NCBI GenBank assembly: GCA_043826475.1
Contig: JBDRQG010000045.1
Coordinates: 1-37,872 of the forward strand
Length of the DNA: 37,872 nt
Direction: 5' to 3'
DNA from: a bacterium
Lineage (GTDB): Bacteria; Zixibacteria; MSB-5A5; GN15; FEB-12
The notes below the pieces were generated by a model. That model was not told the origin of the DNA. It did not search any database and saw only the letters and a program-made list of their open reading frames with translations. Positions within the stretch are counted from its first letter, which is position 1; each line of letters begins with the position of its first letter. This document shows positions 243-37,872 of this stretch, one piece after another. Made by a program: the position numbers and the translations under genes.

Positions 243-2468
243 TCAACAAGGAGATGGTGCTGAGCTGCCTTTGAAGATGTAATTGACGAGGTAAATCAGA
301 TCATTTACAAGAATGTTTCCATCTAGAGGGACAGCGCAATCCCCCTCATCCAAACAACCCGGAGCAGAACCACCCTTAAATAAATAATCAACCAGATAAA
401 CCAGATCAGCGACATCAACCGGACCACCGGGACCGATTATACCATCAGCATTCCCTCGGTTCATACAGCAACCGCTGGAATGAAGAACACCCGGTAATGA
501 TTTGATTTGATAATTAATCATAGATCCGTAATAAGTAGGCGTATAAGAGCTGTATCCATCTGTGATGATAAAGTTCGTATCATTAAGAGGAACACTGCTG
601 CTGACAGTAAAAAATACTTTTAACAGCGATCCATAACCATTGGAAAGTTCCGGCTGGCTTCCATCATTAGAACTGATCAGGGCATAGGTTTTGCGTTTTA
701 CCCAGATATCGGAATGAATAGCTTTTACACTATCAAAATAATCCGTCCGGCATCCTACGGTTGAAACCGAGTCGAGATAAAGATTAAAAGGTCCACCATA
801 TTCTATCGGAATCGTAATATACCGAGTAGGACAAGTATTATAAGCAGAAATTGTAACACAAACTTTTGATCCTGCAGAACAGAATGATGTATCACCAATG
901 AGGGTATCCCCGATCGAAGCTATATAATTATGTTTGGTATTTTGTAAGATATCTCCGGCAGCATCAATTTCAAGCTTCACATCGAATAATCCCCGTTCAT
1001 TAAATGTATGCGATGGAGATTGTATAAAGGCAGAATCACCGTCACCAAAATCCCATGTCCAGGAATCGGGGATTAGCTTTGAAGTGGCAGTGAAATTAAT
1101 ATCAATCGGCGTCCAACCAAAACAGGTGTCTGCTTCAAATTCTACTCCCTGCATAGCCAGAGCTTTTAAACAGAAATTGGCGGTGTTATTAAAGTAATAT
1201 AAATCATGCCACTCACCGTTTTGAAAATAAAAACTCTCGCCTGGATTTGAAGCCGAGACTACCTCAGATCGGTACTTAGCTCCCAGCAGCACAGGAACAT
1301 CAGAGGTACGATCGTAAGGCTGACCACCATGCGAAAGTGATAGATAGACATAAAAGGTATCATCACTATCAACATTAAACTGATTATCCAGATCAATGGT
1401 ATGAAACCCAGAATGTTCTATAGTTCCTGACATTGATGATAGCGGTTCAGAGAGATCACCATTACTGAATTTATCATAAATAATAACATTATAATTTACA
1501 TTTTCTGCTGCAGTAAAAAAACTGACGGCTTGTATCTTTTGTCCACCTTTCCCGATAAAGGTATTAAATGCTTCGCTTACATCGGTTTTAGTATCACGCC
1601 AACCATGGTAGTCATGATAATAGACGTAATCATAAGGCATTGGCCCCACACCCTGAAAAGAAATTGCTCCCATCTCGGGATGCTGACCGCAGTGTTTGTC
1701 ATAGTATGAGATCCAGAAATATCCTTGATATCCCCAGCCTGTCCCCCAGCTGTTTTTAACCAGCCAGGCTCCATTTAACGGGGCTTGTGTATCCCGGTTA
1801 TCATCCCAACCGATAATAGCCACCGCATGGTTGGGATCATTGTAATCTGATGGTGGTTGATAATGGTTATAATATCCATCCAAAAATGATCCACTGGAAT
1901 ATAAACAGGTTCCAATGACACCATTTGACATTATTTTTTCTTTGATAGTATTAATATTACTCAAATTCGATCCGGCTACATACCACTCTATATCTTTAGC
2001 ATAGTAATGATGATAACTTTCCAGATTTCTTTCCGGTGGATCATCAAATGATTGGCCATCGATTTCACGCACTGCTCCTTCACCTCGTGAGAGATAGGCT
2101 GCTGTAACCAGATAGTCTCCTCCCTCATGGACAACCAGTCCGCTTCCGGTCGGTGGTGAGGCATCATCATTGTTGTTTTCATTAAACCCGTTCCACCAAT
2201 CCAGATGATACTCAGCCAAAGCCGGCTCTCCCTCTTCACCGGCAGCAGCCCAGGTTCCGGTCATCAGCATATTCCCTTCCATGGCAGCCATAGCGCCATG
2301 TGTCCAGCAGGTTCCTCCCTGCTGAGATTTTACCGTAGTGACGTAGTTCACTCCGCCAACATTTCTTAGATCAAAAGAACTTGGGAGTTGAGCTTTAGCA
2401 GTACTGACATTTAAAAAAAAGGCTAATAAACATAAAAAAACAATACGATATAGCTTTAGATTAATCAT
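243..2468 (-). CDS. Secreted papain-like (C1 family) cysteine peptidase with a C-terminal PKD + cohesin-like + dockerin-like cassette
   Basis: Signal peptide [26 protein letters not shown]. Papain-type catalytic motifs: [10 protein letters not shown] (Cys), [11 protein letters not shown] (His), [10 protein letters not shown] (Asn-Ser-Trp). PKD motif [10 protein letters not shown]...HTF. The tail carries [17 protein letters not shown] and [23 protein letters not shown] lies upstream of the ATG at 2468. Confidence 0.85.
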
Positions 2469-10763: not shown

Positions 10764-10819
10764 ATTATATTTGTCGCTTAAAGGAATAGCATAAAAAAGT
10801 GTATATCAAAGAAGAGGGA

Positions 10820-11782: not shown

Positions 11783-14092
11783 CTAATCACACCCCACTAA
11801 CGGGTCATCCCCGCCTTTGAAAAGATAATTCACCATATAAACGAGATCGGCGACATTGATATCACAGGTATGATCAACATCCCCTACAAACTCAGGATAG
11901 ATTGAAGTTCCCCCTTTGAAAATGTAATTCACCATATAAACCAGATCTGCAATATTCACATCGTGGTCATGGTTGACATCACCCAGCATCCATGTCCAGA
12001 AATCAGGGATATTAGTTGATTGGGTTGTTAGACCATCTTTATCAAATGCTGTTACTTTCCACCAGTAATGAGTACCAAAAAGGAAGGAATCAATTGGAGT
12101 ATATGAAAAGAATAATATTGAATCTATTGTATTAACATAGGTAAAATTGGAATCTAAAGCAATCCTTAGCTTATATCTGACTGTATCAAAAGGATCGGGA
12201 TCATAGGATTGACTCCACATAAAATTAGTAAGCATATCAAACACTGGCATATTGCTTGTATCTGGGGGGAACTGTGCCTGAAATGCTGCTGGAGGTTCCG
12301 GGGTTTCATTTACAAAGAATGCCGCTGAGAAAATATCTGTCCATTCGGAATATTCATATCCGTCAAAAGCCCTTACATTCCAGAAGTACCTCTTATTCTC
12401 TTCAAGCGGTATTGTCACCTGCCATCCGGTTGAATCTGTTGCTTCCGGGATATTATAACCTTCGATAGGGTAAGGCTCACCATAAGTTGTATCAACCACA
12501 CAGAAGAAATCATAGGTCAGGGGATCACCCTCGGCATCAGTGGAATTATCAATCCAGAGTGTCGGTGTAGCTGTTGTAAACAGATCGTTAATAGGTTGTA
12601 TTGGTAAAGGAACTGTGGGGATAGAGTTCATACGAAATGATGTATTATACCAGTCAGACCAGGCTGTGCCATTATGAACCCTTAACCGAAGATAATAGGT
12701 ATTACCATCCATCAGAGCGGAACCTGAATAAGTTATGAATGTATCCGAAGAAACAAAAGGTGCCGGGTTCCACATTTCTGAATATGCCCAGTCATCATCA
12801 GTTCCAACTGCAATTTCGAATTGAGTTTGAATATTTAATCCTGTTGGATCTAAAATATTCCAATTAATCTCCGGATTGTGATTTATTAAATGTAATGAAT
12901 GATTTATATTGTCAACCAATAGAATATTTATAATTGGTACAACAGCTGTATCAAAATAAACATAAGTAAAACCAGTTTGCCACCCCGAACCGCTACCACC
13001 TTGTGAGACGCCATAAGAATTAGCAGAATAATATAGTCCTAATACTTTTCTATCAATATTTTCTATCCAATATCCGGAAGATCTATAAATCATTCTGCCA
13101 TCCCAGGCATTTATATCATTTGTCCAGGATAATACTGGATTTTGATTAATCGTCCATGACTGACCATTATCTACACTTAGTGCTAAATATAGCTCAGTAG
13201 AATCACCACCATTAAGCCTGTGGTTCGGTGATTCAGTCACTAATCCCAATAGGGAATCATTCATATTCACAATTTCCAGATGCCATATTTTCATGGTGTC
13301 ATCTGAAGAAGGGAATTGACAGGTATCAAATGCTAAAATGCTGTAATCAACCGGAGAAATTACATATCTGACTACTCTTGAGCTATCGAGATATGTTTGA
13401 CCAGCGGCAAAAGGCTCAACTATGTAGAGGGAATATAATGAATCATTGCTTATAATTAATGATGGTGATATAAATGCCGAAATATTTTCCTGTTGCAATA
13501 TACTGTCAGATAATATTTTAATTGGAGGATCCCAATCAATTCCATTATTTGTATGGGTGATATAAATAGCATTAGAATCCTTACCTGCAACATTCCAGGA
13601 GACTCTAAAGACTTGAAGCAACTTATTGTTATAGTCATACAAGATATCAGGATCTGATAAATGCAAAGCTTTGAAATCCTTTAAATTATATAGTGGATTA
13701 TATAAAGTATCTACACCATTCGTAAATTCTTCCCAGTCAATTCCATTATTGCTGACGGCAATATGCGGATTCTCATCTGATTCAGAAATACATATAGGTG
13801 TGTATGCCATCCAATATTTAAATCCCCATAAGCCATCTGAAATATATAATACTGAAGGATGAAGAGCATGTGACGCACCAAGACATTGCAAACTATCTTC
13901 TAAATCCCAGCCTGAATAAAATGATGGGAATATTTGATAATCTGAGGCATGCCCTGCATGAGCATATTGAAGATTAAAACCAAGAGACTTAGTATCTTTA
14001 ATAATTGAATTTGAAGTTTGTGAATAAACAAATTCATATGGTATCACCAAAATACATAAAAATGAGAATAATACTTTTAAATACTTTTTCAT
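11783..14092 (-). CDS. Secreted multidomain protein: beta-propeller (glycosidase/BNR-like) + three FN3-like modules + dockerin-like tail
   Basis: Signal peptide MKKYLKVLFSFLCILVIPYEFVYS. Propeller-type motifs (ENPHIAVSNNGIDW, THTNNGIDW, Asp-box SVDNGQSW). Three modules of about 100 aa each end in a Y[YF]W-type strand (NTYYLRLRVHNGTAWSDW, KRYFWNVRAFDGYEYSEW, THYWWKVTAFDKDG). Tail: GDVNHDHDVNIADLVYMVNYIFKGG...GDVDHTCDINVADLVYMVNYLFKGGDDPLVGCD. Confidence 0.7.
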   Translation of the reverse strand: MKKYLKVLFSFLCILVIPYEFVYSQTSNSIIKDTKSLGFNLQYAHAGHASDYQIFPSFYSGWDLEDSLQCLGASHALHPSVLYISDGLWGFKYWMAYTPICISESDENPHIAVSNNGIDWEEFTNGVDTLYNPLYNLKDFKALHLSDPDILYDYNNKLLQVFRVSWNVAGKDSNAIYITHTNNGIDWDPPIKILSDSILQQENISAFISPSLIISNDSLYSLYIVEPFAAGQTYLDSSRVVRYVISPVDYSILAFDTCQFPSSDDTMKIWHLEIVNMNDSLLGLVTESPNHRLNGGDSTELYLALSVDNGQSWTINQNPVLSWTNDINAWDGRMIYRSSGYWIENIDRKVLGLYYSANSYGVSQGGSGSGWQTGFTYVYFDTAVVPIINILLVDNINHSLHLINHNPEINWNILDPTGLNIQTQFEIAVGTDDDWAYSEMWNPAPFVSSDTFITYSGSALMDGNTYYLRLRVHNGTAWSDWYNTSFRMNSIPTVPLPIQPINDLFTTATPTLWIDNSTDAEGDPLTYDFFCVVDTTYGEPYPIEGYNIPEATDSTGWQVTIPLEENKRYFWNVRAFDGYEYSEWTDIFSAAFFVNETPEPPAAFQAQFPPDTSNMPVFDMLTNFMWSQSYDPDPFDTVRYKLRIALDSNFTYVNTIDSILFFSYTPIDSFLFGTHYWWKVTAFDKDGLTTQSTNIPDFWTWMLGDVNHDHDVNIADLVYMVNYIFKGGTSIYPEFVGDVDHTCDINVADLVYMVNYLFKGGDDPLVGCD

Positions 14093-14247: not shown

Positions 14248-15441
14248 TTAACATTCTGGTTGAGGACCTCCCTTGAAGAGGTAGTTGACCATATAAACCA
14301 AGTCAGCAACATTAATACCGTCACCATTACCTGTTACATCAGAAAGATATATGGGATCAGGGGAAGGACCACCCTTGAAAATATAATTAACAAGAAAAAC
14401 TAAGTCTGCAACATTAGGTCCAATTCCATCACCATCAGAATCTCCACAAAACACTTCTTTGGAATCATTAAAACTGAATATACCATGATCTGTTGCCAGA
14501 TAAACTGTATTGTGATCTCCAGCACTGACAATCTCAATATCGTGCGCCCAGTTAGCACTGTAAGAATTCTCAATAGTTGAGTCCCAGGGTTGACCCGCAT
14601 CATGAGTATAAAACAGGGTTAGCATGTGACCAGTACTTACACCACCAGTAGAATACAGATAGTTGGATCTTACGGGATCGACTTCAATACTATACAAATA
14701 GAAGTTGTTCACAAGCTGGGGCATCCATGATAAACCGCCATTGTTGGAGAATTGAATGATTCCCTCCATAGCAACCCATATTTGCTCTGATTGAGAAGGC
14801 CTGATGGCAACATCATAACAGGCATTGTCTCCACCGCCATTGATCGGTATAGAATACCAGTCCTCACCCAGATTAGGGGAAGTAAGCAGAAGCGGCTGAA
14901 AAATTATGTTCTCTCCACCACACCAGATGGAGTGATTATTGTTGGGATCAATCTCGACAAAAGCTGAGGCTCCATCGGCTGCATGGACTGTTGTCCAGGT
15001 GTAGCCACCGTCTACAGATCGAGCAATACCTACCCCGGCTGCAAAAATTGTGTCGGGCTGATAATCAGCCATGTCGATCTCATTTATTATTGATACATGA
15101 AACCCACTATCCGATGGAAGCCATGTTGCGCCAGCGTCGCTAGTGCGCCAGATAGCATGATCTCCAAATCTTAGTCCAATGACCATATTATAATTATCAA
15201 TAATCAATAATGCTGAAACCGCCTGCCCCTGCATTCCTACCGCTGTCCAGGCAGAAGGAGGATCCCCTTGAAGCTTATGCCAAACGCCGTCGACTGTTGC
15301 TGCATACATATGATCTCCGTTGACTTTGATTTCATATGCCTTTATATCATTAAGACCATGATTGAGCCACTGACCGAATGAAATCGAAACCAACGTAATT
15401 AAGATCATTAAAACCATCGACAATATAGATATGTACTTCAT
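14248..15441 (-). CDS. Secreted BNR/Asp-box beta-propeller protein (Ycf48/sialidase-like fold) with dockerin-like tail
   Basis: Start set to ATG at 15439-15441, 7 nt after GGAGG (15449-15453), giving signal peptide MKYISILSMVLMILITLVSISFG. Repeated Asp-boxes: SDAGATW, SVDGGYTW, NLGEDW, SNNGGLSW, HDAGQPW. Tail: [26 protein letters not shown]...GNGDGINVADLVYMVNYLFKGGPQPEC. Confidence 0.75.
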   Translation of the reverse strand: MKYISILSMVLMILITLVSISFGQWLNHGLNDIKAYEIKVNGDHMYAATVDGVWHKLQGDPPSAWTAVGMQGQAVSALLIIDNYNMVIGLRFGDHAIWRTSDAGATWLPSDSGFHVSIINEIDMADYQPDTIFAAGVGIARSVDGGYTWTTVHAADGASAFVEIDPNNNHSIWCGGENIIFQPLLLTSPNLGEDWYSIPINGGGDNACYDVAIRPSQSEQIWVAMEGIIQFSNNGGLSWMPQLVNNFYLYSIEVDPVRSNYLYSTGGVSTGHMLTLFYTHDAGQPWDSTIENSYSANWAHDIEIVSAGDHNTVYLATDHGIFSFNDSKEVFCGDSDGDGIGPNVADLVFLVNYIFKGGPSPDPIYLSDVTGNGDGINVADLVYMVNYLFKGGPQPEC

Positions 15442-15535
15442 ATTTAAACCTCCACGAGATATTATGGAGATAGACATTATTATTTATGTGCAACCCTGTT
15501 GTATATATCTATCAATAATAAAAGATATTATTTCA

Positions 15536-16981
15536 TCACTCGCACCCTATCAGTGGATCAGGTCCGCCTTTGAAGAGATAATTCACCATATAAACCAGAT
15601 CAGCGACATTGATATCACAGGTATGATCGACATCTCCGATATATTCAGGGAAGATTGTTGCCCCCCCTTTAAAAATATAATTCACCATATAAACCAGATC
15701 GGCGACATTAATATCATCATCCAAGTTGACATCACCGGGGAGAAGCAGAGCCGCATCTTTGATAACTTTCATGTCCACGTTTGAAGTGTACCAGCCAATA
15801 GAATCACCCTGATTTATGTTTTTACCCCTCCCGGAAATAAGGAGATGCAACTGCCAATAATTTGCCTTTTCTTCGATAAGCGGATGGACCGTATATATCC
15901 ATTGATCCAGCCAGCCCGATCCGGTCAATAATGGTTCATTAAGATTATACCAGTTTTCGAAATCATAGCTGTATCCAAACCAGCAGGTATCCTTGTCCAG
16001 CATCGGGGTTGCAAATCCGACATACAGGCTGTCTGATAATTTGGAAATTTGGGTATGGCGATGATAATTATTACCGGGCAGGGTCCAGTTTAAAATTCCG
16101 ATAGAATAATGATTATCATCGAGGCTACTCCCTTCTAAAATTGTATTTCCCAACGTATTTACCGTATGAAAAGCAGAATCAAGGGTTGATCCCTCCCATA
16201 CGGCCAGGGCGGTTCTGTTGGCTGAAGTATCCTCGTTTACGATTATTATGTACTTATCGTTGTCAATAAATATCGAAGGCGCCATTAATAGCATACTGCC
16301 ATGTTCAGGATAAATATCCGATCCGTTATTAACATAACCATCTATTAATAGAGTGGTATCATCCCAATTTGAACCATTAAATTTGTGGGCATAAATGGAG
16401 TGGATTGAGAGGCTTGATCTTTCAAAACCAGAAGTGTACACAACATTCCGGGTTATTCTGGTTATCATTACCGGGGAGTTGTCCTTGTCAAGCAGCAGAA
16501 CAGGATCTGACATATATGTGCCATAAGCACTTGTAGCCCAGGAATAACTGTGGCCTTCAGGATCATCAAAAAAAGAGGCCGAACATAAGGGATTATGTAT
16601 CTCAGCACCTGAAGTATCAACCAACTCATGCCAGACATTGAGGTCATATAAATTTTCCGTGAAATTCAGGCTGTCATCCATAACATATATACAGGGGTCC
16701 TCACAAAGACTGCTTCCATCAACTAAAGGAGTACCCACAATCCACATGGATGGGTTGTTCATATATCCGCCAGGTATAAAAAGAGGGAAGGTGTGCATTA
16801 CCTGAAAGCTGTCATCAGGCTCGGATATACAGGAATTTGGCACATGGAGGCGGATAAAGGCATTACCGATTGTATCAATCTGGAATAATGGCTGTACCGA
16901 CGGCATAATTGTCGTTTCAGCATTAATACCGGCAGACACTAACAACAAGAGTATTGCTCTAATCAGTACATTCATAACCAT
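15536..16981 (-). CDS. Secreted protein of unknown catalytic type (possibly propeller-like) with dockerin-like tail
   Basis: Signal peptide MVMNVLIRAILLLLVSAGINA. Tail: GDVNLDDDINVADLVYMVNYIFKGG...GDVDHTCDINVADLVYMVNYLFKGGPDPLIGCE, nearly identical to the tail of the 11783 gene. Confidence 0.65.
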   Translation of the reverse strand: MVMNVLIRAILLLLVSAGINAETTIMPSVQPLFQIDTIGNAFIRLHVPNSCISEPDDSFQVMHTFPLFIPGGYMNNPSMWIVGTPLVDGSSLCEDPCIYVMDDSLNFTENLYDLNVWHELVDTSGAEIHNPLCSASFFDDPEGHSYSWATSAYGTYMSDPVLLLDKDNSPVMITRITRNVVYTSGFERSSLSIHSIYAHKFNGSNWDDTTLLIDGYVNNGSDIYPEHGSMLLMAPSIFIDNDKYIIIVNEDTSANRTALAVWEGSTLDSAFHTVNTLGNTILEGSSLDDNHYSIGILNWTLPGNNYHRHTQISKLSDSLYVGFATPMLDKDTCWFGYSYDFENWYNLNEPLLTGSGWLDQWIYTVHPLIEEKANYWQLHLLISGRGKNINQGDSIGWYTSNVDMKVIKDAALLLPGDVNLDDDINVADLVYMVNYIFKGGATIFPEYIGDVDHTCDINVADLVYMVNYLFKGGPDPLIGCE

Positions 16982-23812: not shown

Positions 23813-23878
23813 AAACACTCCTATCAACTCTAATTTCTCTTTTTTCATTCTAAAATTTTTATACTTATATTTTTTATG

Positions 23879-23908
23879 AAAAGACCCCAACAGTTAATGC
23901 TTGGGGTC
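23879..23908 (-). terminator. Hairpin between pilQ and the Ig-like lipoprotein gene (weak terminator or attenuator)
   Basis: GACCCCAA (23883-23890) pairs with TTGGGGTC (23901-23908) around a 10-nt loop. On the minus strand TTTC ATAAAAAA follows. Confidence 0.45.
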
Positions 23909-23934
23909 ATTTCATCAGAGTTCATCATCAGAAC

Positions 23935-25218: not shown

Positions 25219-25237
25219 TATCTTATCCTACCTTTCC

Positions 25238-26905
25238 TTACTGATTTTCCATTTTCAGGGATAGAGTACGACTCCAGCCATACTCAAATAATTGAAAATA
25301 TACTTCTTCGGGTTCAATTCTCAGCACATAACCGTTGCGGACTTTATCCCCTTCTTTAAGGATATAACCGTAACTGTCTTTATCTTCAAAAAGTGCACTA
25401 TTGATTTTATTATCAGATTCAATGACACCAACCAGACGCAATCCTTCAACATTTGCAATACGCTGTTCAATCGGATTGTCATTGACTCTGGATTCATTGA
25501 TCAGAGTTTCAAACGGGTCCCTTCCAAAAGGTTGGTACTTAATTACCAGACGCTGTGGGAATTCAGCTACCAAAGTCCCTTTGATTTTTGTCGGCGTTGA
25601 GGGTGAACGGCGGAAGCGGGAAGTTGACTTCTTATCAACATCCTTATCAATAGCTTCAGCTTCAGCTTCAGCTTCAGTTTCATTTTCCTCATTTTTAGTA
25701 TCATCGCTTCCAGAAACATCACTATTGGTCTCTGTATTTTTGACAGCCGGCTTGGCTTCTGTTATAACCTGAGGTTTATCCTCGGTTGTGGAAACAAGCT
25801 GAACCGGTTGAGTACTTTTATCAAAAGCTGATTTAGTCTCTTTATTATTTGGTTGAGCTTTAGGCTCTTCCTTTTTCATAAGTGGTACATTGTTATGTTC
25901 AACAGTCGGTTCGATCTTGGCGACAGTGGTAGTAGGTTTTTCTGATATAGCCTTGACCGGTTCGGTTTTGACAATAGTAGTAACAGGTGTTTCAGACTTA
26001 GCCTTGGCCGGTTCGGTTTTAACATCAGTAGTAGCAGGCTTATCTGATTTTACTGGAGTTGGATCTGTTGGTTCTGTTGATTTTTTAGTTTCAACTTTAG
26101 CAACTGCTATCTTTTCTTCTTTCTTAACTGCAGGCTTATCTATAGTAGCCTGTTTCTTTTCTTCAGCTTTGGTATTCAAACTTAATGCTTGATTCTGAAC
26201 CAGGGGTGGAAGATTGTTTTCATCAAATATTGGCTGTTTGGGAACATCCTTGTTTACATCTTCCGGTTTGGTAACCTTTGGCTCAGGTACTGCAGACTTT
26301 TTTGTCTCTGGTTCTGAACCTTTCAGGCTTAATTGACGATCCTGATCCATCGAAGAATTCTTATCTACCCAGGTTTTTTCCCTGGCAGGAGTTTCCTTTG
26401 CCGGGGCAGGTTCGGTTTTTACAGCCACAGCCGGTTTTTCCTGAGTTTGTGATTTCTTCAACTCAGAAACGACATGTGTAGTTGACCAGACCTGGAAAAC
26501 CTTTGAATTTTTATCAGGGAATGAAATCGTAATCGATTTTTCATCCGAACTGACCTGATAAAAAGTCTCCTTTTTCATATCAAAAACCAGTCTGGTAACT
26601 TTTTCCGGCTTAACGGAGTACTGGCTGGTTCGCAAACCTTGTATAGGACATTCGGGCAGTGCCAGGAAATTATTGGCGCCTAAATCATGGGTTGCGGAGA
26701 GTACATCCAGGATAATCCGGAATGGTTTACCATCTTTAGCGATTTCAGTCTGATGAGAAAACCTTACCGTCCCCTGGACATCAATCCGAGCTTGAGTAAA
26801 ACCATTATTATAGTTCAACTCGACATTTGTCACCTGGGAGGCGAAGGCGCCACCGACAGTTAAAAATACGCTAAATATTATTAGTAGGGCAAAAGCCTTT
26901 TTCAT
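25238..26905 (-). CDS. pilP: AMIN domain + long K/P/E/T-rich linker + PilP-like HR domain (PilP fusion)
   Basis: Type I signal peptide (GGAFA|SQ, no lipobox). AMIN-like N-terminus (VTNVELNYNNGFTQARIDVQG...KPFRIILDVLSA...VTRLVFDMKK...ITISF). A low-complexity linker of about 330 aa. C-terminus RDPFETL...EGLRLVGVIESDNKINSALFEDKDSYGYILKEGDKVRNGYVLRIEPEEVYFQ, typical of PilP. It occupies the pilP position between pilO and pilQ. Confidence 0.7.
   Translation of the reverse strand: MKKAFALLIIFSVFLTVGGAFASQVTNVELNYNNGFTQARIDVQGTVRFSHQTEIAKDGKPFRIILDVLSATHDLGANNFLALPECPIQGLRTSQYSVKPEKVTRLVFDMKKETFYQVSSDEKSITISFPDKNSKVFQVWSTTHVVSELKKSQTQEKPAVAVKTEPAPAKETPAREKTWVDKNSSMDQDRQLSLKGSEPETKKSAVPEPKVTKPEDVNKDVPKQPIFDENNLPPLVQNQALSLNTKAEEKKQATIDKPAVKKEEKIAVAKVETKKSTEPTDPTPVKSDKPATTDVKTEPAKAKSETPVTTIVKTEPVKAISEKPTTTVAKIEPTVEHNNVPLMKKEEPKAQPNNKETKSAFDKSTQPVQLVSTTEDKPQVITEAKPAVKNTETNSDVSGSDDTKNEENETEAEAEAEAIDKDVDKKSTSRFRRSPSTPTKIKGTLVAEFPQRLVIKYQPFGRDPFETLINESRVNDNPIEQRIANVEGLRLVGVIESDNKINSALFEDKDSYGYILKEGDKVRNGYVLRIEPEEVYFQLFEYGWSRTLSLKMENQ
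25652..25677. repeat. In-frame hexanucleotide repeat (AGCTTC x4) encoding (EA)n
   Basis: It encodes ETEAEAEAEAID within the linker of the AMIN-PilP protein. Confidence 0.9.
25907..26059. repeat. Three tandem 51-nt (17-codon) repeats in the AMIN-PilP linker
   Basis: Units at 25907-25957, 25958-26008 and 26009-26059 each begin GGTTCG[AG]T[CT]TT. They encode the variants PVKSDKPATTDVKTE, PAKAKSETPVTTIVKTE and PVKAISEKPTTTVAKIE. Confidence 0.85.
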
Positions 26906-26919
26906 TACTACCTGACCTC

Positions 26920-27525
26920 CTAAAGAGCAAGCTCTGAGAGCCGTTCATCTTCTTTGACGAAGTATGTCAAAAGAACAAATTTTGCCGTTAGAGTTTCATG
27001 ATTAGAATCATCATCCTGACTATCATTTTCTGATATGGCCAATTTTTGAGAAACCAGTTCCATATTAGTCAGGTTGGCTATAAAGGGAAAATTAGCCACA
27101 TAACTTACAAATTTCCCGAAATCATGATACGTTCCTGTCATTTCTATCTCAAACGAAGCGATGTTATAAAATTGCTGAGATTCAATCGGGCGCGGGTTAA
27201 GCTTGGTAATCCTGGTACCGGTAATTGAAGAAGCAGTATGCAGCTGTACCAGCAGGGATGGAATCTGTTTCACTTCGGGAAGCAATGCTTCGATTTCATG
27301 GTAACGATCAATCAAATCACTATACTCTAATTTGAGCGCATCAAGCGATTTAGCTTTCATCTCTACATTGCGCAGATTGGTCGTAATGGACTCAAATTCC
27401 TGGCTTTTGTTCGCAATTTGAGAATCATATTTCACATAAAGACGAGTGTACCAGAAATAGCCTACTATAAAGAGGGCCATTACACCCAATAATATCTTTT
27501 GTGTTTTGGGATCTTTCAGGTCCAT
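26920..27525 (-). CDS. pilO: Type IV pilus assembly protein PilO
   Basis: One N-terminal TM helix (ILLGVMALFIVGYFWY), a coiled coil, then a ferredoxin-like core (IPSLLVQLHTASSITGTRITKLNP...FEIEMTGTYHDFGKFVSYVANFPFI). Confidence 0.8.
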   Translation of the reverse strand: MDLKDPKTQKILLGVMALFIVGYFWYTRLYVKYDSQIANKSQEFESITTNLRNVEMKAKSLDALKLEYSDLIDRYHEIEALLPEVKQIPSLLVQLHTASSITGTRITKLNPRPIESQQFYNIASFEIEMTGTYHDFGKFVSYVANFPFIANLTNMELVSQKLAISENDSQDDDSNHETLTAKFVLLTYFVKEDERLSELAL

Positions 27526-27535
27526 AGCAGCATCC

Positions 27536-28243
27536 TCAGTTTAGGCTCTTGTGACTGGTTTTATTATTATCTTCATTATTATTATTAGCCTGAGCTATCA
27601 GATTTTGAAGTTCCTCATCAGATAAATAATGGACATTGCAGGAGAAGACAAAATTGTATGCCTTCTGTTCGCCGAAGACTTTTTCCGAAGAAGTAGTCAG
27701 TTCCACATTATCGAAATAATCTGAGCGCATCATATTTATCATAAAGGAAGCCAAGGCATTCAGGGTAAAGGCATACCCCTCGATTTCAGCCTCATGTACT
27801 CTGGGCTGATTATCAATAACCGGAGGAGCCTGTTGTCCCTTTTCCGTCTCAGCATTTTTAACTGCAGGAGCATCCTTCTCTGAAAGTCTGGCCAGCCAGA
27901 TAAACTCGGGGACATTGCTTGAAATGTTTTCAAGAACTCTGACCCATGCGGTCCGGTGGCTATCCAGTCTTTCGACAGCGCTCATCCTTTCGCCAATCTT
28001 CTGTTTGACATCAATGAGGGCATCAACAAGCCTGATATCATTCTGAAGCATGGCAGCACGCTGTTTGGCTTTACCGATATTTTCATCAAGCTTGCTTATT
28101 TGATGGGCTTGATAGAAGGAAATAAAAGCCAGCATGATAATAATACCTACCACACCGCCGAGAGTATAAAATCCAGCTTTGCCAAAAGACAGATTGACTG
28201 CTTTTTTGTGATATTGCTTGGGAAGTAAATTTATTTCTATCAT
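27536..28243 (-). CDS. pilN: Type IV pilus assembly protein PilN
   Basis: Canonical N-terminus MIEINLLPKQ, a TM helix and a coiled coil. It lies between pilM and pilO. Confidence 0.8.
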   Translation of the reverse strand: MIEINLLPKQYHKKAVNLSFGKAGFYTLGGVVGIIIMLAFISFYQAHQISKLDENIGKAKQRAAMLQNDIRLVDALIDVKQKIGERMSAVERLDSHRTAWVRVLENISSNVPEFIWLARLSEKDAPAVKNAETEKGQQAPPVIDNQPRVHEAEIEGYAFTLNALASFMINMMRSDYFDNVELTTSSEKVFGEQKAYNFVFSCNVHYLSDEELQNLIAQANNNNEDNNKTSHKSLN

Positions 28244-28250
28244 CAGTCTG

Positions 28251-29303
28251 TTACCTCGCCTTCCTCATTGCCAAACCGACTGAAACTGTCAGTAATGGAG
28301 CAATTTTTTCCGGCTGTAAATATTGGAACAAATCCGGATCGTAATCCACTTTTCGCAGCGGATTAGCAATCTCTAATGGAATGTTCAACTTGGACTGTAA
28401 AAGTTCCGGCAAGTAGGGGATCAAAGACCCGCCGCCCGAAAGAACAATCCAATCCACACCATCTACTTTTGTTTGTGATTTGAAATATGAAAAAGCCAGC
28501 TCCACACCTGAAAGCAACTCATCCGTAGCTGATATGATAGTGGCTTTGAGCATATCCTGGTCAATTGAATCATCCATCTCACCTTTAATAGCTTTAGAAG
28601 TCAGCTCCGGATTAAGGCGGAATTCCTTCTGAATAGCATTATAAATTTCTCTGGTTCCCGAGGAGACATCACGGGTAGAATGGTATCTGCCTTCCAGCAA
28701 ATAGGTGATATTGGTGACATCATGGCCGATATTCAAGAGAGCTGTTATTCTGGTCGGGTCAATATCATAGTTGTTTTCATAGGCATTGTAAATAGCCAGA
28801 GCATCATCATCAACAATCACCGGTCTTAACCCGCAATCGGCTACAAGTTCTAATTGCGTTTGGAGATATTCCTTACGCGCTGCCACCAGAAGGACGTCCA
28901 TCTTTTTGACGCTTTCATCTACATTAATGATATGATAGTCAAGCGAGACATCATCAACATCGAATGGCGCTCTTTGTTCGGTTTCAAACAGGATAGCCTG
29001 TTCAGCTTCGCTGCCGGTTTTGTGATCGATGGTGAATCGATCGGTCATAACCCCGTGACCGGATATTGATATAACAACATCTTTGATCTTGGGATCGGTT
29101 TGATCAATAAGAGATTGAACGTTAAAAATAACTGCTTCACGATCTCTTATCTCATCAGCAACGATGGCATCGGGTGGAAGCTCTCTCACGCCTATGGCAG
29201 CTATTGAATAACCGTCATTAGTATGGTCAAGCTTAACCAATTTTATAGAACTCGAACCAATGTCAAGTCCTACGGTACTTTTACTTTTTTGCGAAAACAA
29301 CAT
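28251..29303 (-). CDS. pilM: Type IV pilus assembly protein PilM (actin-like ATPase fold)
   Basis: Phosphate-1 motif VGLDIGSSSIKLVKL. Also LNIGHDVTNITYL and LSGGGSLIPYLPELL. Confidence 0.85.
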   Translation of the reverse strand: MLFSQKSKSTVGLDIGSSSIKLVKLDHTNDGYSIAAIGVRELPPDAIVADEIRDREAVIFNVQSLIDQTDPKIKDVVISISGHGVMTDRFTIDHKTGSEAEQAILFETEQRAPFDVDDVSLDYHIINVDESVKKMDVLLVAARKEYLQTQLELVADCGLRPVIVDDDALAIYNAYENNYDIDPTRITALLNIGHDVTNITYLLEGRYHSTRDVSSGTREIYNAIQKEFRLNPELTSKAIKGEMDDSIDQDMLKATIISATDELLSGVELAFSYFKSQTKVDGVDWIVLSGGGSLIPYLPELLQSKLNIPLEIANPLRKVDYDPDLFQYLQPEKIAPLLTVSVGLAMRKAR

Positions 29304-29513
29304 AGATTACTCTGTAGTTAAAGCTTTCAAGTTCTTTTATAAATTTCTTATCGGCATGTATTTAATTCGATTTATGTCATTTTTCCAAAAATCGAATAAA
29401 AATCTTTTTAGTCCGATAATTTATCATTGTACCGGATTTATCGGTTCACCCTGCCTGGTACTTAACCTCATTTTATCATTAATAAGGGATTTTAAAAAAC
29501 CTGTTAAATCAAT

Positions 29514-29539
29514 AAAAAAACCCCTCCGGAAAGGAGGGG
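29514..29539 (-). terminator. Intrinsic terminator of the pilin-like gene
   Basis: CCCCTCC-GGAAA-GGAGGGG. On the minus strand 7 T follow. Confidence 0.8.
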
Positions 29540-29570
29540 TTGCCAAAAAGGAGAAGAAGGAGTAAGTATT

Positions 29571-30089
29571 TTAGTAATAATTTGCTACAGTTTTAATCCT
29601 ACCAGTAGATGCAAGAATATTGTGAGTCTGAGTACCAACTAGTAATTCAGAGTATTTTAATGTATAAATATCCGCTCCAGTGGTCATAGCGGTTATAAAA
29701 CGAGCTGAACCGTTGGGCATAAATATTATAGCGTCAGTATCAAGATTGGTATCCATAAATTCCAAATCGCTGGCCAAAGTATCAGTTCGAACAACCTCAT
29801 CACCATCTTCAAATTCATAATTCTCAGGATTCACGACATCTTTAAATAAAGTAATGGTCAGATGGCTTTGATCAATATAAACACCATATGGAGCTTTATC
29901 TGATATGGCTTTAGATCTGGCTAATTTAATTGTTGATATAATATCCCGGTTAGCTTTTTTATAATTGATCTTTTCAAATGTTCCTTCAAACCGGGGAACC
30001 GCCATCGCAGCCACAATCCCGATGATGACAACTGTAGTCATTAACTCTATGAGGGTCATACCTTTTTGTAATTTTAATCTGTTTTTCAT
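29571..30089 (-). CDS. Prepilin-type N-terminal cleavage/methylation protein (type IV pilin, GspH/FimT-like)
   Basis: Class III signal LQKG|MTLIELMTTVVIIGIVAAMAVPRF with Glu5. FimT/GspH-like helix region (IISTIKLARSKAISDKAPYGVYI). The mature protein has no Cys. Confidence 0.8.
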   Translation of the reverse strand: MKNRLKLQKGMTLIELMTTVVIIGIVAAMAVPRFEGTFEKINYKKANRDIISTIKLARSKAISDKAPYGVYIDQSHLTITLFKDVVNPENYEFEDGDEVVRTDTLASDLEFMDTNLDTDAIIFMPNGSARFITAMTTGADIYTLKYSELLVGTQTHNILASTGRIKTVANYY

Positions 30090-30421: not shown

Positions 30422-32794
30422 ATGAAAAGAGCTTTCTCTTTGCTTATTTTACCTCTTTTTATAATAACTGCTTTAATGATAACGACTGTATTTGCACAAG
30501 GTACAGTTCCGGGACATGAATGTCTTGTCGATGGCCCGGTTGTTATACAAAAATCAAAAAATCTAATAAAAAGTACTGCCCTCGAATATCTTACATCCCA
30601 GAATGACGAAGATGTAAGTATCTGGGTCTTTTTCACAGATAAAGGGGTCTTTACAAAAGAAGATTTTAACAATAAAGCTGCATCTTTGTCGGTCTCGGAA
30701 AAATCAATGAATAGGCGTTCTAAGGTCAACAAAGACAAGGTTTTATTTGCTGATCTGCCGGTCGTTCAGGATTATATTGATAATGTTATTAATAGTGGCG
30801 GTAAGCTCAGGCGAATCTCTCGATGGTTAAATGCTGCCAGTTTTGATATCCCACTTGCAAATATTGTACAATTAGAATCTCTTCCATTTGTAGCCGAAGT
30901 CAAACCTTTGGCTAAATTTAATCGCCGTGATCAATCAGAAATTACGGACATCAGAATTGATGACATTCAAAATCAGGCCTTATCCCCTGATGTATTAAAT
31001 TATGGTATAGCCCAGGACCAATTAGAACAGATCCATGTCCCACCTCTTCATAATATGGGTTATGATGGTTCAGGGGTAACTCTGGCTGTTTTTGATACAG
31101 GATTCCGCAAATCTCATGAAGCTTTTGCTCAGCATTATGCCGAGGGTAGAGTTTTAGCCGAATGGGATTTTATTTTTAATGACAGCAACACAGCCAATGA
31201 ATCCGAAGATATAAGCACTCAATGGAATCATGGGACCCTTACCTGGTCAACAGCCGGTGGGTTAAAAGATGGTTCGCTGTACGGCCCGGCATATAAAGCA
31301 AATTTTATCTTATGTAAAACCGAGGATGTTCGTTCTGAGACACCGGTTGAAGAGGATAACTGGGTGGCTGCACTGGAATGGGTTGATCCCCTTGGAGCTG
31401 ATGTTATTACTTCGTCACTAACTTACACCGATTGGTATACATATTCCGATTTTGACGGCCAGACAGCAACAATAACACTAGCAGCCAATACCGCCGCAGG
31501 ACTTGGGATTGTCGTTTGTAATTCAATGGGTAACAGCGGTCCAAGTGCTGGAACTTTAGGTCCTCCCTGTGATGGTTACGATATTGTAGCTTGTGCGGCT
31601 ATGGATGCAAGCGGCAACATTGCCAGCTTCTCATCAAGAGGCCCAACTTATGATGGCCGCATGAAACCCGAAGTCGGAGCTCGCGGCGTCAACACTGCAT
31701 GCGCATCATCCAGCGGGGATTATTCTTATACCACTGCCAGCGGAACATCCCTCTCAACACCGTTGGTTGCCGGAGCGGTTTGTTTGCTTATTCAGGCTCA
31801 TCCCAACTATACTCCCCAGATGATTATTCAATCATTAAAAGACTTTGGTGATCATGCTGAGAACCCTGATAATAATTACGGTTGGGGAATTATTAATACT
31901 GAGGAATCTTTTGGATGGGGAGCTAATTTTGATGCTGACATAACTATCGGCGATGCTCCGCAGACGGTACAATTTACCAATACTTCATCTCTGGCTTCTG
32001 ATTCCTATGTCTGGTCATTTGGTGATGGGAGTTCTTCATATGTCGAGAATCCTTCACATTATTATGGAGAATCTGGTGTTTACGATGTATCCCTTAATAT
32101 CGATACCGAGTATGGAATAATATCACGAGTAAAACATGCTTTTGTTATTTTATTAGGTGATACTCTTACATTTACATCTGACTCTGTTTTTGCCGGTGAA
32201 AAAGCTTATATCTCCGTAAATTTAAAAAATTCCCAGCCTATAGATAAAATAACAATTCCCTTTACATATGGGGGATCAGGTTTGATTGATTATGATTCGG
32301 TCACATTCGGCGACAGAACATCATACTTCGATGAAATAAAATTTGTCCATCAGGATTCCTGGGTTAGAAAATACACGATTGAATTATCGATTAATGTTGC
32401 TGGACCAAATCCGCCTCTTGAACCGGGATACGGAGAAGTTATGAGAATTTATTTCTCAACTGATCCTTATGCTCTGGGGGGATCAAATGATTTTGTTGAT
32501 ACAACAAATGCAACTTACAAGTTAGCTTTACGATCAGAATATATGACATATAATCCTCGTTTTTATGATGGTAATATTGTTATGAAGCCGGTAATCAGAG
32601 GCAACGCCGACAATATAGGTTCAATCAATGTTGCCGACCTTGTTTACCTTGTCAATTATCTTTTTAAAGGCGGATCAGCCCCAGTGACAATTCAGTCCGG
32701 TGATGTCAACAGCGATTTGGCTGTGTTAGTTTCAGATTTAACATATTTAGTTGAATACATTTTTAAAGGCGGCCCGCCACCAATAACTCCGTAA
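30422..32794 (+). CDS. Secreted subtilisin-like (S8) serine protease with propeptide and a C-terminal PKD + cohesin-like + dockerin-like cassette
   Basis: Signal peptide MKRAFSLLILPLFIITALMITTVFA. Catalytic triad motifs LAVFDTGF (Asp), WNHGTLTWS (His), SGTSLSTPLVAGA (Ser). PKD motif VWSFGDGSSS...HYY. Tail: [26 protein letters not shown]...GDVNSDLAVLVSDLTYLVEYIFKGGPPPITP. Confidence 0.9.
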   Translation: MKRAFSLLILPLFIITALMITTVFAQGTVPGHECLVDGPVVIQKSKNLIKSTALEYLTSQNDEDVSIWVFFTDKGVFTKEDFNNKAASLSVSEKSMNRRSKVNKDKVLFADLPVVQDYIDNVINSGGKLRRISRWLNAASFDIPLANIVQLESLPFVAEVKPLAKFNRRDQSEITDIRIDDIQNQALSPDVLNYGIAQDQLEQIHVPPLHNMGYDGSGVTLAVFDTGFRKSHEAFAQHYAEGRVLAEWDFIFNDSNTANESEDISTQWNHGTLTWSTAGGLKDGSLYGPAYKANFILCKTEDVRSETPVEEDNWVAALEWVDPLGADVITSSLTYTDWYTYSDFDGQTATITLAANTAAGLGIVVCNSMGNSGPSAGTLGPPCDGYDIVACAAMDASGNIASFSSRGPTYDGRMKPEVGARGVNTACASSSGDYSYTTASGTSLSTPLVAGAVCLLIQAHPNYTPQMIIQSLKDFGDHAENPDNNYGWGIINTEESFGWGANFDADITIGDAPQTVQFTNTSSLASDSYVWSFGDGSSSYVENPSHYYGESGVYDVSLNIDTEYGIISRVKHAFVILLGDTLTFTSDSVFAGEKAYISVNLKNSQPIDKITIPFTYGGSGLIDYDSVTFGDRTSYFDEIKFVHQDSWVRKYTIELSINVAGPNPPLEPGYGEVMRIYFSTDPYALGGSNDFVDTTNATYKLALRSEYMTYNPRFYDGNIVMKPVIRGNADNIGSINVADLVYLVNYLFKGGSAPVTIQSGDVNSDLAVLVSDLTYLVEYIFKGGPPPITP

Positions 32795-32855: not shown

Positions 32856-33953
32856 TTAGATAACAAACTTACCATTGCGGTAAATTACCTTGCCATCAGC
32901 AGTAATTTGGCCCTTATGCATATCACATATCATATCCCAGTGAAGGGAGCTGATATTCTTACCACCCGATTCATCTATTGATTTGCCAACCGCAAGATGA
33001 CAGGTTCCGCCGATTTTTTCATCGAATAGGATGTTTTTTGAAAAATGATTGATATCATAATTAGTGCCGACAGCAATCTCTCCTACAAATCGCGCACCCT
33101 TATCCATATTAAGCATACTCGTGAGGAAATCTTGATTTTTACCGGCTGATTCTTTAACCACTTTACCTTTCTTAAATTCCAACTTAACATTTTCAACCAC
33201 TCGCCCCATATATACGGCTGGATAACTGAACTGGATATGACCCTCGACAGTATCTTCAATCGGCCCGGTAAATATTTCGCCATCGGGGAAATTGACCCGA
33301 CCGGAACATTCAATCCATTTGCGTCCCTTGACTCTCATTTTCAAATCAGTCCCCTCTGATTGAAAATGAAGATGGTCTATCCGGTTAAGGATCTTCACCA
33401 GACGCTGTTGTTCACTGGAAATTTTCTTCCAGTGTTTTGCCGGGTCGGCAGCGTTCATATGGCCGGCATTATATACAAAATCTTCCCAATCTTTTAAAGA
33501 CATCTCAGCTTCCTGAGCATCGGCGCTAACCGGAAAGAGCGTCCCACACCATCTGAGAGAATTATCACCCATACGCTTGAACATCTTTTTGATCAAGGCC
33601 GATCGAGAGCTGCGCATCAACGCCTGTCTTTGGGGATCTACTCCCGAGAGATAGCGCGTGTTAGAGCTTCCCCAGATAACTATTAAGGTCTCCATCTTAT
33701 CGACTTCAAACTTTTCCATTGGTGAAATAAATTTCAACTGGTCATCTTTGGCGTGCTTCAAAAAACTCTCTTCATTATCAGGGACTACTATCCTGGTGTA
33801 AGGATAAGCGCCGGCTATGACAGCCTCTTTATACACAGCTTTGATAAGCGGCAGGGTACAAACTTCCCCCTGAATTTTGAGCATCTCCCCTTTTTTTAAT
33901 CTAATCGAATAATGAACCAGCAGTTGGGCAAGTTTTTCAATTCTTTGATCCAT
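32856..33953 (-). CDS. M29 family aminopeptidase (AmpS/PepS-like)
   Basis: N-terminus MDQRIEKLAQLLVHYSIRLKKGEMLKIQGE and length of 365 aa fit. The C-terminal metal-site region is GTNYD...FDEKIGGTCHLAVG...HWDM. Confidence 0.7.
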   Translation of the reverse strand: MDQRIEKLAQLLVHYSIRLKKGEMLKIQGEVCTLPLIKAVYKEAVIAGAYPYTRIVVPDNEESFLKHAKDDQLKFISPMEKFEVDKMETLIVIWGSSNTRYLSGVDPQRQALMRSSRSALIKKMFKRMGDNSLRWCGTLFPVSADAQEAEMSLKDWEDFVYNAGHMNAADPAKHWKKISSEQQRLVKILNRIDHLHFQSEGTDLKMRVKGRKWIECSGRVNFPDGEIFTGPIEDTVEGHIQFSYPAVYMGRVVENVKLEFKKGKVVKESAGKNQDFLTSMLNMDKGARFVGEIAVGTNYDINHFSKNILFDEKIGGTCHLAVGKSIDESGGKNISSLHWDMICDMHKGQITADGKVIYRNGKFVI

Positions 33954-36275: not shown

Positions 36276-36309
36276 GTAAAAAGATAAACATCATGAATTG
36301 GAGGCCTTA

Positions 36310-37872
36310 ATGGTCCGATATAGTGTGCAGTTGGTCAGTCTGACAATTTTTGCTTTGGCTCTAATTTGGTTTGCCGGATCCGGTGAAGCTTTTCAGGGAG
36401 AAGATACACCGAGAATCAATCCAATTCTTTTAGCTGATACTTTCCATATTGATCTTGAAGAAAAAAACGACTCCCCTATCAATGAAGTATCCCCTGAAGA
36501 AAAAAGAGAAACATTTCTCAAGGATGTCAAGAAACTGACCCAAACAGCTTTTGAAATCCGTAATAAATATATGGAAGAGGTCGATACCGATGAAATAATT
36601 AAATCAGGTATTGAAGGGATGCTCTCGCATCTGGACCGTTATTCCAATCTGCTTGAAAAATCATCTTATGAATCTCTGATGGAATCGACTCATGGCAAAT
36701 ACGAAGGACTGGGAATGCAGATTGATTCCCGCGAGGAACGGATAAGAATCATTTCTCCGATTGAAGGAACACCGGCCTACCGCAAAGGCTTACGAGCCGG
36801 AGATATTATATGGGAGATTGAAGGACAATCAACCAAAGGAATGACTGCTTCCGATGCTTCAAAACTGATGCGGGGTAAAGCCGGTACATCGATTACCATG
36901 TCGATCAAACGAGCCGGTTTGGAGAATCCGATTGAATTTGAAATCGAAAGAGCAATAATTGAACTAAAATCAGTAAACTATTATGGTGTTGTTCCGGGAA
37001 CGAATGTCGGCTATGTCCGCCTGTCCCGTTTTGCCGAAGAGACCAGCCATGAATTGCGCGAAGCTATCAGCGCTCTTAATGAACAGAATGTAACAAGCCT
37101 TATTTTTGATCTGCGCAACAATGGCGGTGGTCTTCTGGATCAGGCTATTGAAACTTCAGAGCTCTTTTTAAATCAGGGTAATGAAATTGTTTACACTCGC
37201 GGCAGATTTGAAAACAGCGAACGTCATTATCAATCCCAGCGCCCCCCTCTCTTCCCGGATAAACCGGTGGTTGTACTTGTAGATGAAGGAACCGCTTCGG
37301 CATCGGAAATCGTCTCCGGCGCAATACAGGATTGGGACCGAGGATTAATTGTCGGAAGCACCACTTACGGTAAAGGTCTGGTTCAGCAGGTCTTCCCTAT
37401 TTCTGCTGACGGCGATATGAATCTTAAGCTTACCACCGCAAAATATTATGTTCCCTCGGGCCGCTGCATCCAGAAACCTGAAAAGCAGGGTAAGTACCAT
37501 CCGGAAGATGTTGTTGATACAGAAGAGGATGTTGACACCCTGACAATTGCTGAAGAAAAAGAGATTTTCTATACGAACGGCGGACGGATTGTTTATGGCG
37601 GCGGCGGTATCGTTCCGGATATCGAAATTCCAGCCGAAACATGGAGACCGATTGAGCTAAACCTCTATCGCAATTCGATGTTCTTTAATTTTGCTGTTGA
37701 TTATGTTGCCAAACATCCGGATGTAAAACCTGATCTTGTAATCACCGATGAAATTCTGGATCAATTCAAAGCTTTCTTAAAGGAAAAAGAATTCGATTAT
37801 GTTTCATCATTGGAAGCATCGATAGAGAGTCTTGAAAAGACAATCAACAAAGAAGAAAAATATGATCTCTTT
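36310..37872 (+). CDS. ctpA: Carboxyl-terminal processing (tail-specific) protease, S41 family; 3'-partial, runs off the window
   Basis: I hand-translated 521 codons with no stop from ATG at 36310 (GGAGG lies 5 nt upstream). It is not in the ORF track because it has no stop. Signal/TM MVRYSVQLVSLTIFALALIWFAGSGEA. PDZ region GLGMQID...ISPIEGTPAYRKGLRAGDIIWEIEG. S41 motifs FDLRNNGGG, DEGTASASEIVSGA, TYGKGLVQQ. Confidence 0.85.
   Translation, partial: MVRYSVQLVSLTIFALALIWFAGSGEAFQGEDTPRINPILLADTFHIDLEEKNDSPINEVSPEEKRETFLKDVKKLTQTAFEIRNKYMEEVDTDEIIKSGIEGMLSHLDRYSNLLEKSSYESLMESTHGKYEGLGMQIDSREERIRIISPIEGTPAYRKGLRAGDIIWEIEGQSTKGMTASDASKLMRGKAGTSITMSIKRAGLENPIEFEIERAIIELKSVNYYGVVPGTNVGYVRLSRFAEETSHELREAISALNEQNVTSLIFDLRNNGGGLLDQAIETSELFLNQGNEIVYTRGRFENSERHYQSQRPPLFPDKPVVVLVDEGTASASEIVSGAIQDWDRGLIVGSTTYGKGLVQQVFPISADGDMNLKLTTAKYYVPSGRCIQKPEKQGKYHPEDVVDTEEDVDTLTIAEEKEIFYTNGGRIVYGGGGIVPDIEIPAETWRPIELNLYRNSMFFNFAVDYVAKHPDVKPDLVITDEILDQFKAFLKEKEFDYVSSLEASIESLEKTINKEEKYDLF

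Follow-up and report, generated by a model that had tools for sequence, protein, structure and literature searches.

Unrelated peptidases of Zixibacteria end in a shared PKD, cohesin-fold and dockerin cassette that may link them at the cell surface

Cellulosomes build enzyme complexes by means of a cohesin "socket" and a dockerin "plug". The cohesin is a nine-stranded flattened β-sandwich (jelly-roll) of about 140–150 residues that binds a dockerin in a manner dependent on Ca2+ at the dockerin, and the type I dockerin consists of two segments of about 22 residues, each comprising a Ca-binding loop and then a helix, which together span about 65 residues. Going by the fold and motif comparisons presented here, both halves of such a connector are carried by two proteases, one subtilisin-like (S8) and the other papain-like (C1), encoded in a DNA stretch of 37,872 nucleotides (contig JBDRQG010000045.1, our contig C45; hereafter the window). 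The genome bin to which it belongs comprises 3.4 Mb in 462 contigs, and the closest protein relatives of the window genes are labelled Zixibacteria. As the bin is 89% complete and fragmented, the copy numbers given for it are lower bounds.

The closest precedent for an enzyme that bears a cohesin together with a dockerin is Amy4 of Ruminococcus bromii, an amylosome enzyme with a C-terminal dockerin; its cohesin recognizes this dockerin as well as those of other enzymes (PMC4611034). Like Amy4, the window proteases combine a catalytic module, a predicted cohesin and a C-terminal dockerin in one polypeptide, and their signal-like N-termini suggest that they are exported. However, Amy4 belongs to a Gram-positive Firmicute and is a GH13 amylase anchored via a sortase-type scaffoldin, whereas the Zixibacteria hosts are peptidases of a diderm candidate phylum. 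Furthermore, their cohesin is undetectable by Pfam, follows a PKD domain and is joined to the dockerin without an intervening module, and recurs in this arrangement as a cassette in 5–15 genes per genome. Adaptor scaffoldins (Acetivibrio cellulolyticus ScaA/ScaB and R. flavefaciens ScaA/ScaC) also use one or more cohesins and a dockerin to extend a network from an anchoring scaffoldin, and some of their cohesins (5lxv, 4uyp and others) are among the fold matches of the middle module described below. They are non-catalytic and usually feature several cohesins, in contrast to the single cohesin on an enzyme in the Zixibacteria cassette; only one 262-amino acid (aa) protein of this genome is a pure adaptor. 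The cellulosome-like complex proposed for Ca. Stygibacter (Cloacimonadota, FCB group) pairs S8 and C25 peptidases that bear dockerins with a cohesin scaffoldin attached via a type IX C-terminal domain, and it would degrade polypeptides and polysaccharides (PMC8542988). There, Pfam-detectable cohesins are found on one large scaffoldin and the enzymes have dockerins only, whereas the Zixibacteria peptidases themselves appear to carry a hidden cohesin. The non-cellulosomal cohesin of Archaeoglobus fulgidus (2xdh), the eighth fold match of the middle module (E 2e-9, TM score 0.71–0.76), likewise lies outside any cellulose-degrading context, but it is archaeal, shows 11% sequence identity and has no PKD-cohesin-dockerin cassette.

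In the literature searched, we found no paper linking Zixibacteria with dockerins and no description of a cellulosome-type system for them; the one paper to mention "Zixibacteria" as well as "cellulosome" does so a single time each and gives no account of such a system. What is new here is a large Pfam-invisible cohesin family, with a fixed PKD-cohesin-dockerin order, a strong preference for peptidases and a phylum-wide presence.

The cassette of the two window proteases

At the C-terminus of either protease lies a conserved cassette of three modules: a PKD domain, a cohesin-fold module and a dockerin (Table 1). The C-terminal 288 aa of the S8 protease and its stop codon correspond to segment 31928–32794, and the C-terminal 298 aa of the C1 protease and its stop codon to segment 243–1139 on the minus strand. 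BLASTP joins these tails in a single collinear alignment (E 3e-66) with 117 identities over 295 positions (40%) and 10 gap positions, a similarity that is, at the level of sequence, far beyond chance. The initial annotation had aligned the two tails by eye and put about one third of the residues as identical; the collinear homology is confirmed, and the actual identity is slightly higher. The motifs and positions that it had listed all recur in both translations: the FDAD/FEAD opening, the PKD motif W.FGDG.S....PSH, GDTL at cassette positions 77–80, ITIP..YGG at positions 108–116, and RGNAD and the duplicated DLVYLVNYLFKGG tail. Its further view that the catalytic folds are unrelated agrees with the Pfam assignments, by which the S8 protease has a Peptidase_S8 domain (123 bits, residues 216–489; D/H/S motifs FDTG, NHGT and GTSLSTP) and the C1 protease has a Peptidase_C1 domain (68.3 bits) followed by a Lectin_like domain (104.3 bits). 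Both proteins have signal-like N-termini, visible in the S8 protease as a hydrophobic stretch. The first module of the cassette matches PKD families (PF00801/PF18911) above the Pfam cut-off in both proteases, displays the WxFGDG motif in both, and would serve as a spacer.

The middle module escapes sequence searches, as none of the seven copies in the genome matches PF00963 or any other Pfam family even at E ≤ 10, and its profile retrieves no PDB sequence at E ≤ 10. An AlphaFold2 model of the S8 copy, built on an alignment of 62 sequences, has a mean predicted local distance difference test score (pLDDT) of 92.9, a predicted template modelling score (pTM) of 0.86 and nine main β-strand elements. 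When this model was compared with the PDB by Foldseek, every one of the top 50 matches was a cohesin, with types I, II and III all represented (E 6e-10 to 6e-6, TM score 0.66–0.79, probability 1.00, sequence identity 9–19%). Because only cohesins occur among these top 50 matches, the nine-stranded sandwich is supported, as a model, to be a cohesin by fold that has diverged in sequence. This bears out the cohesin-like character that the initial annotation had suggested for the module; a plain second PKD/Ig domain, which it had named as the contrary outcome, is ruled out by the same matches. Comparison with the PF00963-type cohesins of the genome by hhalign gave a probability of 2.9% with a 7-sequence profile and of 40.6% with the 62-sequence profile (E 2.9e-4, 117 columns), the latter match being collinear and weak.

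Cohesins share the jelly-roll sandwich with many binding modules, and the most conserved residues of the family lie in loops and not on the sheet face. The module could instead tether the protease to its substrate or to the envelope of the cell, with only the dockerin engaged in docking. We consider this very unlikely: the 50 best fold matches include neither a carbohydrate-binding module nor any other sandwich, no Pfam binding module is matched, and the cohesin family co-occurs with dockerins across genomes (see below). The most conserved positions are N27, P30, G-C-R-T-x-Y-F and L-x-P-G-x-G, which map to S8 residues 603–606, 630–636 and 666–671 (window positions ~32228–32434). They sit in the 2-3, 4-5 and 6-7 loops which, by the topology of the sandwich, are at the same end as the N-terminus (the PKD side); this end may be the interface with the PKD domain or a functional site.

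The third module is a two-repeat, type I-like dockerin. Its two-segment layout is evident from the motif that is duplicated in either tail, and a model of the cohesin with the dockerin features three helices in the tail (161–172, 181–184 and 194–205). A profile of 26 cassette tails, with both window tails included, matches about 20 distinct solved type I dockerins (E 5e-8 to 1e-3). The second-best match (E 1e-7) is 8x39_A/8x3a_A ("Serine protease", 151–152 aa), and this protease dockerin may be a useful structural comparator. Against the Pfam Dockerin_1 model, the S8 tail stays below the cut-off of 22.9 with 15.9–20.5 bits, and the C1 tail does not appear among the matches; sister cassettes score 33–43 bits, and E ≤ 1e-4 is reached by 21 of 76 and 14 of 69 cassette proteins in the two samples introduced below. 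At positions 1, 3, 5, 9 and 12 of the loops, the S8 dockerin has N-D-I-N-D in repeat 1 and D-N-D-L-D in repeat 2. The C1 dockerin has a CC junction, a linker Cys and a terminal Cys. In line with the five tails counted in the initial annotation, a motif scan assigns the duplicated tail to exactly five window proteins, namely the two proteases and the products of three minus-strand genes; the Ca loops of the latter three are canonical. The tail motif is found in about 65 open reading frames (ORFs) across the genome, all with nearly identical dockerin helices. In at least 49 of these ORFs the motif is at the extreme C-terminus, and Dockerin_1 matches 32 places in the genome.

Table 1. Positions of the cassette modules, dockerin tails and candidate partner proteins (in the window, C45, unless another contig is named)
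Feature	Position	Strand	Basis
S8 (subtilisin-like) protease gene, 790 aa	30422..32794	+	ORF, translation, Pfam
PKD domain, S8 cassette, residues 503-576	31928..32149	+	PKD_4 44.3 bits, PKD 28.0 bits
Divergent cohesin-fold module, S8 cassette, residues 577-725	32150..32596	+	AlphaFold2 model, Foldseek
Two-repeat dockerin and stop, S8 cassette, residues 726-790	32597..32794	+	Dockerin_1, model, tail profile
C1 (papain-like) protease gene, 741 aa	243..2468	-	ORF, translation, Pfam
PKD domain, C1 cassette, residues 444-517	918..1139	-	PKD_4 37.5 bits, PKD 28.6 bits
Cohesin-fold module, C1 cassette, residues 518-670	459..917	-	Aligns with S8 module; family hidden Markov model 182.6 bits
Two-repeat dockerin and stop, C1 cassette, residues 671-741	243..458	-	Motifs 407-375, 302-270; tail profile
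Dockerin tail of 769-aa secreted protein 11783-14092	11783..11986	-	Dockerin_1 23.9-25.9 bits, above cut-off; motifs
Dockerin tail of 409-aa beta-propeller-like protein 14248-15477	14248..14445	-	Motifs 14406-14374, 14304-14272
Dockerin tail of 481-aa protein 15536-16981	15536..15739	-	Motifs 15700-15668, 15601-15569
288-aa protein: signal peptide, one cassette-type cohesin, Por_Secre_tail (48 bits), no dockerin	C89:5738-6601	-	
963-aa ORF: cassette-type cohesin, no dockerin, ends in Por_Secre_tail-type sorting motif	C417:1447-4335	+	
1401-aa ORF: cassette-type cohesin, no dockerin, ends in Por_Secre_tail-type sorting motif	C12:2-4204	+	
862-aa ORF: PF00963-like cohesins, one dockerin, type IX tail	C155:1149-3734	-	
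262-aa protein: only signal peptide, cassette-type cohesin, CC junction, two-repeat dockerin	C440:14152-14937	-	

Distribution and shuffling of the cassette

A search of 1.84 billion representatives with the cohesin-module profile recovered 573 clusters at E ≤ 1e-3, 386 of them at E ≤ 1e-10. In 139 of 157 proteins (~89%) the module ends 60–79 residues before the C-terminus, a distance that matches the length of exactly one dockerin. Among 76 unbiased full-length representatives, 74 (~97%) have the PKD domain, and the N-terminal peptidases belong to the C10 (13), C1 (10), S8 (6), C25 (4), M28 (3), M43 (3), M4 (2), trypsin-like (2) and C39-like (1) families; a minority features non-peptidase domains, such as the SGL propeller (9), β-helix (4) and FG-GAP (1). 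A second sample, from named genomes, has the PKD domain in 69 of 69 proteins, with C10 (24), C1 (22), S8 (6), trypsin-like (5) and M4 (2) peptidases. This sample was drawn by a degenerate DNA pattern for DS.S..GCRT[DE]YF and is biased to one sub-type, and accordingly the host tally was redone on the unbiased representatives. As judged from these domain assignments, the hosts of the cassette are mostly peptidases, of at least nine families. Seven copies occur in the present genome: besides the window proteases, they are found on a C10 peptidase, two further S8 peptidases, a β-helix protein and a fragment. Variant architectures (P0017, P0036, P0042, P0043; P0015, P0033) include some in which the peptidase-PKD-cohesin array is followed by thrombospondin type 3 repeats that replace the dockerin, and others with two tandem PKD-cohesin units.

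The named records are mostly from Zixibacteria, with some bins labelled Ignavibacteriales, GN15, Calditrichota or Bacteroidota. In the phylum, all but four of the 151 genomes sampled have the cohesin module (147 genomes, from 84 of 88 genera), typically in 5–15 copies each. Genomes with the cohesin family have from 19 to 150 or more dockerin tails, and three of the four phylum genomes without the family (G066, G090 and G115) also have no dockerin tails. This co-occurrence provides modest support for a cohesin-dockerin system, given that the three double-negative genomes come from only two lineages. Several genomes of 3–5 Mb (G036, G085, G034 and others) have 50 to 150 or more dockerin tails, and such counts match those of the richest cellulosome producers.

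The initial annotation had posited that the cassette moved by domain shuffling, a view strengthened by the spread over at least nine peptidase families and by a maximum-likelihood tree of 133 cassettes with 15 N-terminal families. On this quick tree, of limited branch support, the N-terminal family changes 43 times against a minimum of 14, with about 87 changes for shuffled labels; the figure of 43 is an upper bound, as a single Pfam family may have been divided among several labels by the BLAST clustering. There are 20 family-mixing clades of up to eight leaves with values of at least 90 in the Shimodaira–Hasegawa-like approximate likelihood ratio test, for instance one uniting the C10 peptidase of this genome with its β-helix protein (100) and one uniting C1 and C10 peptidases (93). 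Because the cassette tree mixes families repeatedly, domain shuffling is supported by the sequence phylogeny, and its clear cases show that the cassette has moved time and again from one catalytic domain to another, unrelated one.

Sockets, plugs and the cohesin-dockerin dyad

Cohesins of the cassette type are also found in this genome outside the cassette (Table 1). In addition to the three dockerin-free ORFs that end in a type IX (Por_Secre_tail, PF18962) sorting domain or motif, there is a 195-aa protein with a cassette-type cohesin and no dockerin. The 862-aa ORF of C155 has two PF00963 matches, one of them above the cut-off, and a third stretch that was assigned by eye. From their domain composition, the C89, C417, C12 and C155 proteins are candidate surface anchors for the dockerin proteins. 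The 262-aa C440 protein, which has neither an enzyme nor a PKD domain, represents by its predicted architecture a minimal adaptor. In the Pfam scan, PF18962 is present on the C89 and C155 cohesin proteins, and neither protease matches it; a type IX tail on the proteases was rejected on this ground.

We also considered whether the duplicated tail is itself the C-terminal export or sorting tag of the phylum, with the cohesin-fold module as a passenger. Its extreme C-terminal position in at least 49 of 65 ORFs, its presence on 19 to 150 or more proteins per genome, as is typical of sorting tags, and the passage of the tail proteins across the outer membrane would all be explained in this way. However, classical dockerins are likewise C-terminal and numerous, the tail profile matches solved dockerins at E 5e-8, the D/N pattern of the Ca loops is kept in most members, and a separate type IX tail is found on other proteins of the genome. 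This makes a sorting tag the least probable of the explanations weighed here, and we regard it as a very long shot.

Within the cassette, the cohesin and the dockerin succeed each other with a linker close to zero, and their joint model reaches a pLDDT of 93.3 and a pTM of 0.83, which is above the expectation for two freely hinged domains, insofar as the model is a guide. In a tally of 219 dyads (the representatives and loci L006–L108), 136 have all of four cysteines, namely those of the GC[RK] loop, the junction, the inter-repeat stretch and the terminus, and in 132 of these 136 the junction Cys occurs as CC. None of the four is present in 10 dyads, including that of the window S8 protease. 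The modal cysteine count of the dyads is five, an odd number. Because of the near-zero linker, the co-varying cysteines and the pTM, the modelling suggests that cohesin and dockerin form a rigid unit, in which a disulfide clasp perhaps joins the dockerin termini to the cohesin end. A fold search with the joint model found no PDB chain covering both modules and is silent on their mutual orientation. As modelled, such a rigid dyad would be compatible with binding in trans.

The same features, i.e., a dockerin placed directly after the module, the all-or-none cysteines and a confidently modelled and hence apparently fixed orientation, would also suit a rigid support, in which the cohesin-fold domain receives no dockerin and the cassette is one large plug. 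This is the arrangement of the XDoc dyads of type II/III dockerins (e.g., 2b59, 4iu3), where a β-sandwich is likewise fused directly upstream of the dockerin, probably as a rigid pair. However, the X module of XDoc is Ig-like and has no socket function, whereas the Zixibacteria module has only cohesins among its 50 best fold matches. Moreover, the same family is found without a dockerin on type IX-tailed proteins and before TSP_3 repeats; because these dockerin-free copies exist, mere support of a dockerin would have no role to play there. We therefore think it unlikely that the module acts only as such a support.

In the reading that we consider the probable one, the proteases would act as cargo and as adaptor alike within a cohesin-dockerin network at the cell surface. 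The proteins would be exported, and the dockerin would plug into a cohesin on a surface-anchored protein with a type IX C-terminal sorting domain, or alternatively into the cohesin of another cassette. The protease's own cohesin would offer a further socket for one of the ~65 tail-bearing proteins, and the outcome would be a cellulosome-style surface complex enriched in peptidases. In this scheme we infer the export, the cohesin-dockerin binding, the choice of partner and the formation of chains.

A rival reading, in line with the head-to-tail polymerization suggested by the initial annotation, would make self-assembly the main function, such that each cohesin recognizes a dockerin of its own type to form head-to-tail homo-polymers or daisy chains. 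It has in its favor the union of cohesin and dockerin in one chain, the behavior of Amy4, whose cohesin binds its own dockerin and which runs at >250 kDa (PMC4611034), and the C440 protein, which suggests that the dyad is workable as a stand-alone linker. On the other hand, the interface is hypothetical, the dockerin helices are nearly identical in ~65 ORFs with nothing to mark those of the cassettes as a private specificity group, and the anchored cohesins provide alternative partners. Self-assembly as the principal role thus seems improbable to us, and, because cohesins of the same family are found on type IX-sorted proteins, docking to anchored scaffoldins is at least as likely as self-polymerization.

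Several observations weigh against the proposed network of cargo and adaptors. In terms of sequence searches, the cohesin module has no significant match to PF00963, and both window protease dockerins fall below the Pfam cut-off. Their Ca loops are partly degenerate, with an Ile at position 5 in repeat 1 of the S8 dockerin and with insertions in the C1 repeats. The structure models are of single chains, and the binding between cohesin and dockerin is putative. The near-zero linker, the all-or-none cysteines and the pTM of the dyad fit a rigid unit in which the cohesin face might be occupied or merely structural. Lastly, the cassette proteins appear to have no type IX sorting domain and would have to cross the outer membrane by another route.

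Genomic setting and significance

Directly upstream of the S8 gene is a run of minus-strand genes (22070–30089) that includes a PilM gene (28251–29303), a gene for an AMIN-domain protein that is probably a secretin (25238–26905) and one for a GspH-like pseudopilin with an N-methylation motif (29571–30089). By its gene content, this appears to be a type IV pilus or type II secretion-like cluster, and as such it could be a candidate outer-membrane route for the dockerin proteins. The window is also rich in peptidases, with the C1 gene at one end and, towards the other, the S8 gene followed by that of an M29 aminopeptidase (32856–33953, minus strand) and, further on, that of an S41 (PDZ) peptidase (36298–37872, plus strand). 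A polyamine synthesis pair, an ornithine/arginine decarboxylase beside a spermidine synthase (9594–11671, plus strand), is unrelated to the cassette.

Cohesin-dockerin systems are usually counted by Pfam, by which a family of at least 573 clusters goes unseen, and such counting would give Zixibacteria many dockerins and almost no sockets. Once the cohesin module is recognized, what had been an odd conserved tail becomes an assembly system open to testing. On a wider scale, we tentatively put forward, as a possibility that we would not yet bet on, that the Zixibacteria build a protein-degrading counterpart of the cellulosome, with type IX-anchored cohesins, 50–150 dockerin-tagged secreted proteins per genome and peptidases that carry a hidden cohesin. 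With the same reserve, this picture would include the rigid fusion of that cohesin to the dockerin, possibly by a disulfide clasp, and the formation of protease chains or branches. If true, it would be the first phylum-wide, protease-centered cohesin-dockerin machine in diderm bacteria, with the majority of its sockets invisible to current domain databases. The compact dyad with its conserved cysteines is possibly also a new, and possibly orthogonal, connector pair for protein engineering. Anoxic sediments, in which protein serves as a major substrate, commonly harbor Zixibacteria, and a surface-bound multi-protease complex would bear on how these bacteria feed.

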